53,071 bases of DNA from Candidatus Altiarchaeota archaeon (GCA_043813075.1 JBDRLL010000011.1:1-53071); one strand, 5' to 3'. Positions 141 through 53,071 are shown, counted from the first letter of the stretch. The notes: generated by a model from the letters alone, not told the origin. Made by a program: numbers and translations.

Positions 141-1735
141 AGTATATTGTATATGCTCAGCCAGGTTTTTTTATCCTCACTGTACGTCCTCCTCACCAGC
201 CGCATCCTGTTTGGATTGAATATGTTGGCTATTATGCAGTCCCTCCAGCCTCCAGCGTATTTCGCTCTGATGTCGTTGAAATCGGACTCTCTCGTCAGGA
301 TTATGTAAGCCCCCCTGTTGTCCCTCCTGCAGTCATAGTAGCTGAGGTCTCCTATGAAGCCTTTACTCGGATCTCCCTTGAAGTTCTTCACCCCGCTCCT
401 CCTCGAGTAGCCAGACTTCAACTCCAAGTCCTGCTCTATGAAAGCCTCGGTCCAGACGTTCGCCTTCTCGTTCTCCCTGACGAACTCGTATATCTCCCTG
501 TTGAACTGGTTGTACCTGGTGTACGTCCGATGATAGTCCCCCATTATGCCAGCCGACTGGTATACGAGCGCGGTGATTATCACGGCCACTATCATCCAGC
601 GGGCCCTCCCATGTCCCCTGTTTTCCGTAAACCTTGAGAGTCCTCCAGCAAGTATTATCATGGACGGGCCTGTTATGATGGTGAAGTATCTAGGCTCCTT
701 GTGGAGTGGCAGGTATTTCTGAGGGCTCATTGTGCCGAAGGCGAAGTAGGCGAGTATCACTGCCACCCAAAGCATCATGAAGTAGTATCTCCTGTCCCTC
801 TTATGCGAAAGGTAGATCATGGAGAGGAACACCATCAGGTAGAAGCCTCCTGTCCTAGTGTACTTTTGCGTCCAGTGGAGGGAGTTGACGACGCGGTCGC
901 AGTAGCCGTTTTGGATGTCTAGCAGAAGGCACGGCACGTACCACGGGTCCTGTGTGGGGTCCACCACATTAGGGTTCTCGTAGATGTGTGTCTGCAGTAG
1001 AAGACCGACATCATACCTCTGGAGAATGTTCCCTGTCTCGAGTTTGAGGTATGCTCCTTCGGCAGCGACGAATAAGAGGAATCCGGCCAGCACGTACATG
1101 TACTTCCACCGTATCCTCCTGCTGTACGCCGAGTGTATGACTGATATGATCATGTAGGCTGCCATCACCATTAGGCCTAGCTTCTTCACGTTATATACTA
1201 TGCCAGCCGCAAACCCGGAAAGCAGCAGGAGAGTGCGGTATGTTCCTCCCATGTATTTTTTTGATACGGTGAACAGGAATACGCTAAGCATGGCGTAGAA
1301 CCCTATCTCCGTGTCTCCTCTTATGGTGGTGGACACGAAGGCGTCAAGCGGGAACACGCTCATAAGCAGTGCGGCGAATAAGCCCGCTCTCTTGTCGTTG
1401 AATGCCGTTGAGCAAAGGGCGTATGCGAGCACCACCTCCAGCATGGATAGCGTGAATGTGGGCAGGAACGCGAGCCGGTAGCTAGCCCCGAAGATTTGGA
1501 AGAGGAATACTATGGGATAGTAGACGAACAGCCTAAGTCCCGCGTAGTGGTTAAGTATCCCGTCAAGGGAGTTATGCCCGTCAATCCACTTCCTCACCAG
1601 CATGAGGTACAGGAAGTCGTCGTGCATCCCTATGCCATTGAAGTAGTAGAGCCTGAAACAGCACGCCATGATTAATATTATCACCAGCAGGGCCGCCTCC
1701 TTGTTAAAAATATTCCCCCATTTTTCAGACCGCAT
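137..1735 (-). CDS. GT-C fold glycosyltransferase (ArnT/PMT, GT39/GT83-like), polytopic membrane protein
   Basis: About 11-13 hydrophobic helices; acidic DD pair (GMHDDFLY) in the first external loop; EPRY motif; soluble C-terminal domain. Confidence 0.75.
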
Positions 1736-40508: not shown

Positions 40509-40614
40509 GCCGAGGTGGCGGAGTCCGGAAACGCGCGGGCCTTGAGTTCACATTAACGAGACGAGGTAGCCCGTGTCCCCCTGGGACACTTGAGTTCAAA
40601 TCTCAACCTCGGCG
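40509..40614 (+). tRNA. tRNA-Ser(UGA) with a 21-nt intron at 37/38 (40547-40567)
   Basis: Acceptor GCCGAGG/CCTCGGC, discriminator G, anticodon stem CGGGC/GCCCG, TGA at 40543-45, long variable arm TGTCCC/GGGACA, T arm TTGAG-TTCAAAT-CTCAA. BHB: CUUG/CGAG helix with bulges AG^U and GU^A. Confidence 0.93.
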
Positions 40615-43028: not shown

Positions 43029-43145
43029 GCGGGGGTGCCTGAGCTGGTCAAACACGATCTTCTACTCTGGATGTCGTGGGCTAGAAGGGCACGGTTGAGG
43101 GCCGTGTGGCGTAGGCCTACGCGAGTTCGAACCTCGTCCCCCGCA
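43029..43145 (+). tRNA. tRNA-Leu(GAG) with a 33-nt non-canonical D-loop intron (about 21/22; 43052-43084)
   Basis: Acceptor GCGGGGG/CCCCCGC plus discriminator A, anticodon arm CACGG-TTGAGGG-CCGTG, long variable arm, T loop TTCGAAC. BHB: GGUC/GGCU helix, bulges AA^A and AG^A, flanked by CACGA/TCGTG and CT/AG. Confidence 0.9.
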
Positions 43146-50747: not shown

Positions 50748-51263
50748 ATGATGGAAACACTACTACAAACCGGAGACCCCACCATACAACTATACGGGCT
50801 CATATTCCTGCTCGGCAGCCTCACAGTAGCCAGCCTATCAGACCTACGACGCCTCGCAGCACAAAAAGACTTCACAGAAGTCTGGATATTCTTCACAGCA
50901 ACCATGCTACTCACAGACATATACCTACTCACAACAAACCAGACAGACCCGTTAACCGCAACCGCCAAATGGACAATCATAATAGCATTCGCATCCATAA
51001 CCACCACCACAATACACTTCAACATATCCACCATGGACGCAGCAGCAGTCACAGCACTACTATCCCTCCTAAACCCAGTGGAAATAACCCTAACACTAAT
51101 ACTACTCCTAATAACCGGAGAACTACTACAACCCCTACTCAAACAATACGGGGAAGCAGGAGCATACCCCTTCCTACCCATAGCATGGACCATCAACATA
51201 CTACTACTAGCATACGCCACAACAGGAGGCCCCGAAACGCTAGCCCAAATCATAATAACCTAA
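50748..51263 (+). CDS. Membrane protein resembling a minimal A24 prepilin-peptidase family member
   Basis: About 6 TMs; ASLSDLRR (first Asp), STMD (second Asp position) and YPFLP. Confidence 0.5.
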   Translation: MMETLLQTGDPTIQLYGLIFLLGSLTVASLSDLRRLAAQKDFTEVWIFFTATMLLTDIYLLTTNQTDPLTATAKWTIIIAFASITTTTIHFNISTMDAAAVTALLSLLNPVEITLTLILLLITGELLQPLLKQYGEAGAYPFLPIAWTINILLLAYATTGGPETLAQIIIT

Positions 51264-51307
51264 AAACCACATTTTTTAACAATCCAAACCCAAAGTATAT
51301 GTCACAA

Positions 51308-51379
51308 CCAAAAGGGGCTGTGGGGGAACGGTCACGGTCCGTTCACACCCGTGGCGCATTCAGCAAAGCTGAATGCACC
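51308..51379 (+). repeat. Shortened upstream copy of the tRNA-Trp precursor (tRNA 5' end plus intron two-hairpin module)
   Basis: CCAAAAGGGGCTGTGGGG matches CCAAAAGGGGCTATGGGG (51407-51424). 51326-51379 matches 51452-51507 in all outer stem segments. Confidence 0.85.
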
Positions 51380-51412
51380 TAAGCCAAACACACGATAACA
51401 CACACACCAAAA

Positions 51413-51656
51413 GGGGCTATGGGGTAACTCGGCATCCTAGCGGGCTCCAGCGAACGGTTTCGTCCGTTCACACCGACGGCGCATTCACCCATACGGGCGA
51501 ATGCACCAGTGAAAAGGATAACACAAGACTGGAGCGCTGAGTCCCGGCCAACCCGGGACAATGACGAAAAACAAAACAGGTCAAAGGCCAAACAAATGCC
51601 TGGAAAAAAAAGTTCGAAGTGACCTGCCGATGGGGGTTCAAATCCCCCTGGCCCCA
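51413..51656 (+). tRNA. tRNA-Trp(CCA) with a 171-nt intron at 37/38 (51451-51621)
   Basis: Acceptor GGGGCTA/TGGCCCC plus discriminator A, anticodon stem GCGGG/CCTGC, CCA at 51447-49, T arm GGGGG-TTCAAAT-CCCCC. BHB with GAAC/GTTC, central helix CUCC/GAAG (one mismatch), bulges AG^C and UG^A. Confidence 0.92.
51509..51592 (+). ncRNA. Intron-encoded box C/D guide RNA for tRNA-Trp 2'-O-methylation
   Basis: Guide CTGGAGC pairs with tRNA 31-37 and places C34 exactly 5 nt upstream of box D' CTGA (51537-40). C' ATGACGA at 51561-67. Second guide CAGGTCA pairs across the 3' splice site; terminal C and D boxes are degenerate. Confidence 0.8.
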
Positions 51657-51698
51657 CAGGTGTGATGTTGAACCTGTAGGGTTTTGGGGCATTTTTTT
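51656..51698 (+). terminator. Hairpin plus T7 tract after tRNA-Trp
   Basis: ACAGGT-N10-ACCTGT followed by TTTTTTT at 51692-51698. Confidence 0.55.
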
Positions 51699-51753
51699 AA
51701 AAGAGAAATAGGGGGTATTATCAACCTCTGTTATTTTCTAATATCTCATCGTA

Positions 51754-51984
51754 TCACCTCCATCCGTGGCATCCGTGGCCTAGGTATGCATCATCCTCTT
51801 CCGGTCTCCATCCGCTAAAGCTATGGTCTTCTATCCATTGTGCAAGTCCATTGTGATGGGATATCATATTGCTGATATGCCAGCCATCACTTCCCTCATC
51901 ATCTACTTCTTGGCTCTCATAGTGGGCAGATACTACCCCCATCACTATAAGAATTACAAGACCTGATATAATGCTTTTCCTCAT
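51754..51984 (-). CDS. Small secreted His/acid-rich protein (76 aa)
   Basis: Signal peptide ending VVSA-H; mature part has 7 His and ends GHGCHGWR; strong GGAGGTG SD. Confidence 0.7.
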   Translation of the reverse strand: MRKSIISGLVILIVMGVVSAHYESQEVDDEGSDGWHISNMISHHNGLAQWIEDHSFSGWRPEEDDAYLGHGCHGWR

Positions 51985-52085
51985 CTTATCACACCTCCTA
52001 ATGCATGTTCTCTTGTTTTTCTTTTGTAGTCAATCACAATCCAAACTCCGTATCCTGTAAGTATCCACATTAATACTTCATTCAT
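51981..52085 (-). CDS. Putative 34-aa membrane microprotein (MNEVLMWILTGYGVWIVIDYKRKTREHALGGVIR)
   Basis: Not in the ORF track; translated manually. Start overlaps the Cys-rich gene's end and the stop forms ATGA with the His-rich gene. Hydrophobic segment followed by basic KRKTR. Confidence 0.5.
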   Translation of the reverse strand: MNEVLMWILTGYGVWIVIDYKRKTREHALGGVIR

Positions 52086-52272
52086 TTTTTGTATGGTATT
52101 CTGGCCAAGGATGGTCTCCACACGTTATCACAGGCAGGCACCAGTAACAGTCTGCGGGCTCACCACCATCTCGCTTATCATAGTTCCTGTTTTTCCCACA
52201 TCTTAAGCATTTTCCCCCGCAAGGTTTATCGCCTTTGTCGGGAAAACAACATCCTTGACCACTCAAACACAT
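52078..52272 (-). CDS. Small Cys-rich protein (64 aa, 9 Cys), metallothionein/zinc-finger-like
   Basis: GAGGTGA SD 5 nt before ATG 52272; CC, CxxxCxxC and CxxC patterns. Confidence 0.6.
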   Translation of the reverse strand: MCLSGQGCCFPDKGDKPCGGKCLRCGKNRNYDKRDGGEPADCYWCLPVITCGDHPWPEYHTKNE

Positions 52273-52296
52273 ACACGTCACCTCTTTCTTTTAGTC

Positions 52297-52450
52297 GAAT
52301 ACAGCTTTCCAACCGTCTTCGCTGTATTCCCTTTAGCTGTTACAGGACAAGTCTTTTACTGTTACCAAATATTTTTTAGCCTTCAGAAAGTGTTACGAAA
52401 GGTTTTTATAGGGTTATGACGTAGTATATGGTAACATTAACAATTGTTAA
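52297..52450. promoter_or_regulatory. Divergent control region: 9-bp inverted repeat, phased TGTTAC boxes and a 14-bp palindrome
   Basis: GAATACAGC-N15-GCTGTATTC (52297-52329); TGTTAC at 52338, 52360 and 52391; inverted GTAACA at 52431; TTAACAATTGTTAA (52437-52450). Confidence 0.55.
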
Positions 52451-52457
52451 GACTTTT

Positions 52458-53071
52458 ATGGATTTAGGAAATAACATACTATGGATTATTGTACTTTTGC
52501 TTGTCACAGCATTGACTCTAAATAACTCCCATCATCATCACAAGATAATAGCATTACATTATGGTCCATCAGCAAGGCTATTTGACCCTCTAATTGCAAT
52601 AACCTCCTTTCTCGTTGGTGCTTTGGTAACTCTGATGTTTCAGTTAGGAATCAATGTCTTGAATTTTGAAAGGGTTTCAAAGCTTTTGCCAAAAAACGAG
52701 AAGATAGTTATGGACGCCCTTTTTAACAACAAGACAATGACTGAACTGGACCTCTCAGTTCAAACAGGTTTATCCAAAAGGAGAATATCTCAAATACTTT
52801 CGAAAATGGAAAAGAAGGGAGTAATAACAAGGACTACAGAAAATGATTCAACCACCATAAATTCAAGTATTTACAAATTGCATAAATCGGCAAACATTAT
52901 ATCTGACTTACCTGGTTTAACAGAGAAAAGAGTACTCATTATGATATTTCTGGTTCTATTATTCGGGTTGTCCTTTTCAATATTGAACAACTACCATAAC
53001 TCCTATCTTGAACATCCACTAAGGCCAGTAATGTACCTTCTTGCTATAGAGTTCTGGGCGCTTGGTGGTAT
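52458..53071 (+). CDS. Membrane-tethered winged-HTH (MarR-like) regulator with a His-rich loop, 3' end outside the window
   Basis: Not in the ORF track (no stop codon). Manual translation: TM1-NNSHHHHKIIALH-TM2-LPKNEKIVMDALF...MTELDLSVQTGLSKRRISQILSKMEKKGVITR (wHTH)-TM3-NNYHNSYLEHP-TM4. Confidence 0.8.
   Translation, partial: MDLGNNILWIIVLLLVTALTLNNSHHHHKIIALHYGPSARLFDPLIAITSFLVGALVTLMFQLGINVLNFERVSKLLPKNEKIVMDALFNNKTMTELDLSVQTGLSKRRISQILSKMEKKGVITRTTENDSTTINSSIYKLHKSANIISDLPGLTEKRVLIMIFLVLLFGLSFSILNNYHNSYLEHPLRPVMYLLAIEFWALGG

Follow-up and report, generated by a model that had tools for sequence, protein, structure and literature searches.

The short copy of the tRNA-Trp gene start that lies ahead of tRNA-Trp in this archaeal contig is a real repeat beside a cassette of a larger hairpin family and is not a Trp-specific splicing switch. 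We analyzed a 53,071-nucleotide stretch of Candidatus Altiarchaeota DNA (the window), its source genome (G000, 89% complete), and related genomes. Our preferred reading, to which we give a probability of about 0.6, is that this copy (the shadow) forms the left member of a duplicated target that brackets a small noncoding hairpin cassette, in the order [X1 51307-51329][cassette to 51405][X2 51406-51428]. The features of the unit are as follows.

51270-51302, plus strand: two TATA-like boxes, a T-rich run (51270-51285) and AAAGTATATGT (51292-51302), candidate promoters for the whole unit as judged from the sequence
51307-51329, plus strand: X1 (the shadow), left-hand copy in the proposed target duplication, comprising tRNA positions 1 to 16 and the 7 nt of leader before them, with 2 mismatches
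51326-51349, plus strand: cassette hairpin 1 (GAACGG, 7-nt loop, CCGTTC) followed by an ACACC box (sequence, family covariation)
51353-51379, plus strand: cassette hairpin 2, whose 12-bp stem carries a conserved C.A mismatch below an AAA loop (repeat search, related copies elsewhere)
51380-51405, plus strand: A/C-rich cassette tail holding GCCAAACA and GATAACACA, both of which recur in the intron (repeat search)
51406-51428, plus strand: X2, right-hand copy in the proposed target duplication, which supplies leader and start to the working gene (repeat search)
51413-51450, plus strand: tRNA-Trp 5' exon, anticodon CCA at 51447-51449 (ARAGORN with the intron re-placed at 37/38; orthologues)
51451-51621, plus strand: canonical 171-nt intron (ARAGORN; bulge-helix-bulge read from the sequence)
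51452-51507, plus strand: second copy of the cassette (hairpin 1, ACACC, hairpin 2), with which the intron opens
51529-51582, plus strand: box C/D-like intron core with guide CTGGAGCG, CTGA (51537-51540), a 7-bp hairpin, AATGACGA (51560-51567), and a second guide, ACAGGTC
51622-51656, plus strand: tRNA-Trp 3' exon, to discriminator A (ARAGORN; T-arm match)

A repeat search aligned the tRNA-Trp leader and first 16 nt with the shadow at 21 of 23 positions and a spacing of 99, leaving an interval of 76 nt between the two repeats; this extends the 17/18 match of an 18-mer ahead of the gene that the initial annotation had described. The last 4 nt of X1 also serve as the 5' strand of hairpin 1. A further repeat joins 51337-51362 to 51462-51487 (88% over 26 nt), and the leader and intron copies of the module are identical at 45 of 56 positions, with hairpin arms at 51353-51364/51368-51379 and 51478-51490/51495-51507, respectively. 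GAATGCACC, GATAACACA, and GCCAAACA each occur twice in the region, and both units present their common blocks in the order leader and start, hairpin 1, ACACC, hairpin 2, GATAACACA. The statements that the annotation had made about repeats, stems, and boxes all hold on reinspection and repeat search, including the placement of TATA-like boxes upstream of the shadow only: inspection of 51380-51412 found no comparable T/A box. Because these boxes lie only before the shadow, at a normal tRNA-promoter distance, the cassette is probably transcribed, and its co-transcription as a leader is plausible. Among public data, no contig from four runs covers 51169-51373. One RNA run held 5% of the sampled words, with its single contig confined to the upstream open reading frame (ORF), and in run X3 a relative's contig carries the 5' 21 nt of tRNA-Trp twice, 155 nt apart.

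The gene itself is easily misread. ARAGORN with introns allowed (-i) predicts a tRNA at 51413-51657, named Arg-CCT, with a 171-nt intron at position 36/37. If the intron is moved to the canonical 37/38, the same sequence reads as Trp-CCA with a regular bulge-helix-bulge containing one C.A mismatch. This motif comprises the anticodon stem (51440-51444/51623-51627, 5 bp), 3-nt bulges (AG/C and TG/A), a central helix (51445-51448/51616-51619, 4 bp including the C.A), and an outer helix (51452-51455/51612-51615, 4 bp), the last of which uses the first four bases of the intron cassette. The central helix of the tRNA-Trp gene in relative G018 is perfect, and the exons are common to orthologues in 34 of the 40 relatives searched. 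Default ARAGORN and Rfam at the gathering score returned no RNA gene anywhere in the window. Two further intron-bearing tRNA predictions, Ser-UGA at 40509-40614 and a doubtful Pro-AGG at 43029-43145, also appear only when introns are allowed. Shadows mislead tRNA annotation, and default tools missed all three tRNA genes of the window. Immediately past the tRNA-Trp 3' end, the G+C content falls from ~0.49 to 0.35-0.43; this stretch (51700-53071) holds small ORFs (one Cys-rich, 67 amino acids) along with a membrane protein whose middle part is winged-helix-like and whose reading frame extends past the contig end, and it may be foreign DNA integrated on the 3' side of the tRNA.

Beyond its cassette, the intron resembles a methylation guide. 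In box C/D RNAs, the target base lies five nucleotides from the D or D' box. Here, CTGGAGC (51529-51535) pairs with 51444-51450, so that G51532, the fifth base upstream of CTGA, faces C34 (51447), and a second intron stretch is complementary to tRNA positions 38-42. The D' (CTGA) and C' (AATGACGA) boxes are clear and conserved in relatives, whereas the terminal C and D boxes are poor matches; this core is kept in relatives whose introns differ elsewhere. No Rfam C/D family matched, and fibrillarin is encoded in the source genome. In a thermodynamic model, pairing between guide and anticodon has a probability of ~0.99 and the splice motif is not formed. The intron GAAC (51452-51455) is complementary to GTTC (51612-51615), as had been noted, and the suggestion that a local GAACGG/CCGTTC hairpin competes for this GAAC is borne out in the folding model, which assigns p 0.78 to the hairpin and ~0 to the outer splice helix, with or without the leader.

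Copies of gene ends are widespread in the source genome. Among its 34 predicted tRNA genes, 10 are preceded within 300 nt by an exact copy of 11 nt or more of their own 5' end, 8 are followed by a copy of their own 3' end, and 17 show one or the other within this distance. When gene ends were paired with the flanks of other tRNA genes, copies were found in 13 and 15 of 1,122 pairs (~1%), and by this genome-wide flank-swap control the copies are not chance. The tRNA-Val gene is flanked by partial copies of itself. Searches of the genome with the module located it also ahead of tRNA-Gln and where the tRNA-Arg(GCG) intron begins, and a sequence-only hidden Markov model (HMM) found 11 copies of hairpin 1 (E < 0.1), 10 of them in or beside tRNA genes and on the same strand as the tRNA. 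Hairpin 1 is fused to copies of the first 12 to 19 nt of tRNA-Asn, Thr-GGU, Gly-UCC, and Trp; it occurs in the Gln leader and in the Trp and Arg introns; and it follows the 3' end of Thr-UGU and copies of the Ile and Ser 3' ends. Six of the 11 copies have their left-hand flank repeated on the far side of the cassette. Shadow and module together also precede intronless tRNAs (Gly-UCC, Gly-GCC, and Met), and junction positions recur at 12/13 (Trp, Gly-UCC, and Met; Val in G015), at 15/16, at 19/20, and immediately past the 3' end. The eleventh copy (C1:1810-1990) occupies the opposite strand where the trpE stop and trpG start overlap, inside a 60-nt direct duplication that leaves both reading frames whole; G012 has the same arrangement with a 47-nt duplication. 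The two repeats at trpE/trpG are near-identical within each genome and different between the two genomes.

The hairpin is conserved as a structure well beyond this genome. We aligned 34 copies gathered by the sequence-only HMM, whose seeds came from a pattern presupposing part of the pairing; several of the variants recovered fall outside that pattern. Within the alignment, 99% of the cells of hairpin 1 (6 bp) are paired, compared with at most 61% for slid partners; both-side changes occur in three of the six pairs (9 cells), and none of 500 shuffles reached the covariation score. Across 49 genomes of the order, the exact hairpin pattern turned up in 14, giving 25 matches against 1 control match. 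A wider scan with a 21-nt core pattern, using one genome per species, yielded 65 records (61 archaeal and 4 bacterial by title), for which we estimate ~6 chance matches. The archaeal records are titled Altiarchaeota or Altiarchaeales, Thermoplasmatota, Woesearchaeota, Nanoarchaeota, and Iainarchaeota (DPANN groups), Methanosarcinales, and unnamed archaea. Across these phyla, hairpin 1 is near-invariant including its loop, with compensatory changes in the outer pairs; the two outermost pairs take eight complementary forms among the core records.

Many of these copies share the bracketed arrangement. A tRNA lies within the 750 nt examined for 25 of 67 motif copies, and 23 of the 67 have the form [X][cassette][X], with an exact repeat of the left flank (at least 11 nt) 44 to 170 nt to the right, although two of the 23 possibly reflect low complexity or sequence internal to the cassette. 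In five of seven non-tRNA cases examined, the repeat spans the 3' end of an ORF on the opposite strand and leaves it intact; one repeat is ~125 nt long, and in one case the site is the end of a weak C/D small RNA (sRNA) match. The cassette is on the opposite strand at protein genes, at the weak C/D sRNA match, and at tRNA-Cys of G034 and G035. In one Thermoplasmatota-titled record (L157, ~1500-1670, minus strand), a cassette end, X, a cassette, and X form a tandem array in which X is a 38-nt gene-end repeat; unequal recombination between repeats would produce such an array. Rfam gave no match to the module at the gathering score, and a permissive search of the Trp locus and eight other cassette loci gave only two weak matches, one to C/D beside a cassette and one to H/ACA ~450 nt from another cassette. 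By eye, the registers of the hairpins misfit a K-turn or H/ACA identity. A viral origin was likewise rejected: the hairpin pattern occurs in 39 viral contigs, none of which has the rest of the module, and by rough estimate this number is close to chance.

Orthologous loci in relatives gave a mixed picture. G018, which belongs to another genus and has the same upstream gene, fuses tRNA-Trp position 12-16 to hairpin 1 and ACACC; the G018 locus also has a different second hairpin, a further partial copy, and an intron without the module. G001 (same genus) has the intron module and lacks the shadow, and G012 and G008 join a 20- to 22-nt shadow to a different module; with many other tRNAs also bearing shadows, the leader is not a Trp-specific feature. 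In G009, the module stands immediately behind the tRNA-Trp 3' end. The tRNA-Asn and Gly-UCC loci are equally patchy, with shadows in G000 and in G002 or G012. G001 lacks all three shadows (Trp, Asn, and Gly-UCC), and its flanks differ from those of G000; no pair of empty and filled sites with identical flanks was found among the relatives compared. Cassettes occupy orthologous places across genera at Trp (G000/G018), Gly-UCC (G000/G012), and trpE/trpG (G000/G012). The shadows of G008, G012, and G018 carry the lineage-specific bases of their own tRNA, which calls for repeated conversion, re-insertion, or selection. In G000, the two Trp copies agree better with one another (45/56) than with their orthologous counterparts (39/60 and 38/57), so sequence was exchanged recently between leader and intron copy, and this exchange explains the identical outer stems without selection on the pair. 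The idea that conserved stems with divergent loops signify structural selection fails for the Trp pair, in which the stems reflect recent copying; across the family, the hairpin structure is conserved with compensatory changes.

We propose that a cassette of this multiphylum archaeal family arrived at roughly position 12-16 within the tRNA-Trp gene, and that the leader and first 16 nt were left on both sides of it, which would have re-created an intact gene downstream. X would be whatever host sequence lies to the left of hairpin 1, at tRNA-Trp the leader and positions 1-16; bracketed copies would survive where X holds a gene end, because one intact gene remains. Transcription would start from the old promoter upstream of the shadow and read through the cassette, and RNase P would remove shadow and cassette as a leader of ~100 nt; the source genome has a full-length match to RNase P RNA (65 bits, below the family gathering score). 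The sole service of the intron copy may be to lend GAAC to the outer splice helix. Candidate routes of insertion are staggered cuts, recombination of a small circle carrying X, and an RNA intermediate. In the 89% complete source genome, searches for Cas1, tyrosine recombinase, reverse transcriptase, Y1 transposase, and TnpB all gave 0 matches, DDE transposases lying outside the search. The tyrosine-recombinase family PF00589, which an archaeal XerA-type enzyme is expected to match, was present in all 14 control genomes. To our knowledge, duplications of 11 to ~125 nt are too long and too variable for any known transposase. More tentatively, and with somewhat less than even odds, the cassettes could represent an undescribed class of archaeal mobile element, 50 to 160 nt long with a cross-phylum hairpin end, that inserts into the first or last 10 to ~125 nt of genes (mainly tRNA genes) and duplicates that stretch so that the gene survives. 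Their movement would depend on host machinery or pass through an RNA or a small circle, and would involve no known transposase or integrase. The earlier alternative of a small mobile or protein-binding RNA module fits this evidence.

The annotation had favored a regulatory leader whose exchange of base pairing with the intron or acceptor stem would set the timing of tRNA-Trp splicing and C34 methylation. Its probable co-transcription and the modeled competition between intron hairpin and outer splice helix would suit such a leader, as would the ability of the near-copy of the 5' acceptor strand to compete for the 3' strand; this last pairing, however, has a predicted probability of 0.75 only if the RNA ends at 51657 and of 0.0 once the trailer is included. 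Partition-function folds of the kind that the annotation had called for predict no effect of the leader on either the bulge-helix-bulge or the intron hairpin. Moreover, the arrangement is specific neither to Trp nor to introns, since intronless tRNAs, tRNA 3' ends, and trpE/trpG carry it, and G001 keeps the intron module without the shadow. We regard such a timing role as unsupported and very improbable. We put equally little weight on a local accident, in which a tandem duplication of -7 to about intron position 74 was followed by loss of positions 17-38 from a decaying upstream copy. The shared blocks do stand in the same order in both units, and the units are each other's closest relatives, but parallel loci strongly disfavor this account: G018 has the same position 12-16/hairpin 1 fusion with an intron that lacks the module, the fusion recurs at other, intronless tRNAs, and such copies accompany 17 of 34 tRNA genes. 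Other structural roles were also rejected. For a leader-trailer processing stem or split-tRNA helix, duplex energies fell within those of shuffles at 10 of 10 loci (z, -0.9 to +1.0); a complement of 13/15 between 51343-51357 and 51651-51665, considered as a processing stem, is unmatched in G018; and the bases flanking the supposed splice sites of the shadow are identical and not complementary, which argues against a spliced true exon.

Another explanation is that the cassettes are RNA or DNA modules useful to the host and under selection, whether as signals for processing, termination, or stability or as small RNAs that RNase P, tRNase Z, or the splicing endonuclease would release, with the duplicated gene end as a trace of arrival. 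The near-invariance of hairpin 1 and its loop across phyla with compensatory outer pairs, the shared strand of all 10 tRNA-linked copies in the source genome, the orthologous places in different genera (Trp, Gly-UCC, and trpE/trpG), and the absence of any mobility enzyme among the families searched all point this way. So does persistence: close direct repeats should vanish quickly, and their survival across genera hints at function, leaving host function or repeated re-insertion as possible sources of the orthologous places. This explanation is nonetheless unlikely, given a distribution that is patchy even within the genus (G001 lacks three shadows), the opposite orientation at protein genes, the weak C/D sRNA match, and tRNA-Cys of G034/G035, the lack of an Rfam family match, and leader-trailer pairing that does not exceed shuffled controls. 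Less likely still is an att-type scar, left when an integrase-bearing virus or plasmid integrated through a gene-end copy and was later almost wholly deleted, so that only the displaced gene end and an attachment-site arm remain. A direct repeat of a tRNA end beside an intact gene is the classic mark of archaeal integration in the accounts of PMC3293823 and PMC9897764, and both are present here; protein-gene ends are used too, and the fall in G+C past the tRNA (~0.49 to 0.35-0.43) could reflect foreign DNA. Neither an integrase nor element-sized DNA accompanies the repeat, however. Only 76 nt separate the repeats, with similar intervals at many other loci, and PF00589 has 0 matches in the 89% complete genome (SSV-type integrases had no separate model). 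In addition, the same cassette adjoins the ends of over 10 different genes, although a single integrase family is expected to use few targets; the 39 viral contig matches, none with the rest of the module, are near chance by estimate; and the repeat is at the 5' D-arm and not in the part of the gene that runs from the anticodon loop or T loop to the 3' end.

Other modules were observed at tRNA genes of the source genome. Behind tRNA-Phe, tRNA-Asp, and a gene called SeC(tca) by ARAGORN (C3:124900-125120, C6:87450-87750, and C10:64990-65230), the T arm and 3' end occur a second time, with an insert of ~55 nt and two hairpins interrupting the T loop; the Asp case recurs in G002, and the ends of the insert could form a bulge-helix-bulge (4-bp central helix plus T stem). 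A second module type consists of AAC-C, a T-rich/A-rich hairpin (TTTCTTTC / GAAAGAAA), GTTTAC, and then a further AAAGAAAGAA strand, which could compete for the T-rich strand. It is found in tRNA introns (Asn and Asp; Trp of two relatives) and trailers (Ile, Phe, and Ser), at C6:2970-3100, C10:99200-99310, and C3:124950-125040 and also in L006 and L004. A third conserved hairpin (TCGGAACC-GTA-GGTTCTGA, with GGAGGT ahead; C6:92300-92330, C10:99100-99120, and C20:74470-74500) lies immediately ahead of the partial copies of the 3' end found downstream of tRNA-Pro, Ile, and Cys, and in G035 of tRNA-Ser, and may be the other end of a longer cassette. Finally, AAC-GAGCGAG at C6:85160-85177, a conserved stretch of what we take to be the 16S rRNA gene, is complementary to hairpin 1 across its loop and 3' strand (CTCGCTC..GTT) and is likewise preceded by an ACGG-6 nt-CCGT hairpin; this complementarity of only 7 to 10 nt may be chance.

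The gain of introns, fragments, and splits in archaeal tRNA genes is a long-standing open question, and a passage of one review (PMC4090602) states that the transposition mechanism of archaeal tRNA introns is unknown. Here, one module family stands in a tRNA intron, in a leader fused to a gene-start copy, and in trailers and the ends of protein genes. The motif and its bracketing duplication offer a concrete handle on what inserts these cassettes and on whether introns start in this way. If the cassettes are indeed a mobile class, the tRNA-Trp shadow would be a fresh footprint of insertion and the intron cassette would hint at how archaeal tRNA introns are gained. A search of the topic literature and of text for a 14-nt motif, with supplements and most subscription journals outside its scope, found no published description of such cassettes; the cross-phylum core, the covariation count, and the protein-gene cases are new here.

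Several known systems resemble parts of this arrangement. MITEs and the REP/REPIN elements associated with Y1 transposases are small, structured, noncoding, and multicopy, and they are often co-transcribed with their neighbors. The cassettes are likewise small, structured, noncoding, and multicopy, with a hairpin followed by a fixed short box (ACAC). Unlike MITEs, they have no terminal inverted repeat joining their ends in our repeat search, their target duplication is long and variable (11 to ~125 nt) instead of a fixed 2 to 10 bp, and they lie inside gene ends and not between genes; Y1_Tnp and TnpB have 0 matches in the incomplete source genome, DDE families being outside the search.

The remainder of the intron, as distinct from the shadow, has its closest parallel in the intron guide of archaeal pre-tRNA-Trp. 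The Haloferax tRNA-Trp intron is described as a box C/D guide for C34 and U39 (PMC11408192). [quoted passage not shown] It differs in its poor terminal C and D boxes and in the extra hairpin cassette at its 5' end.

Partial tRNA copies derived from integrative elements are known in archaea (PMC3293823; PMC9897764), and Caldiarchaeum is described as having a 5' tRNA fragment upstream of an intron-bearing gene (PMC3293823). As with the attL/attR repeats of SSV-type and pNOB8-type integrases, one tRNA end is repeated directly here and the gene is intact; the same accounts allow tandem fragment arrays and the occasional use of protein-gene ends, both of which we see. The present inserts are 50 to 160 nt and noncoding, the integrase search of the source genome was negative, and a single cassette family is found at many gene ends, with repeats of 11 to ~125 nt that are often at the 5' D-arm. 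Thermoproteales tRNA introns offer the other precedent: near-identical short sequences occur in different tRNA genes, from which spread at the DNA level was inferred (2010 study cited in PMC4090602). Correspondingly, the Trp and Arg-GCG copies place hairpin 1 in splice-bounded introns. In contrast to those introns, the present module also lies outside any splice motif, in leaders, trailers, and protein-gene ends, and the flanks of the shadow are identical and not complementary. The cassette is bracketed by a duplicated target, an arrangement that intron transposition of the Thermoproteales type does not predict.
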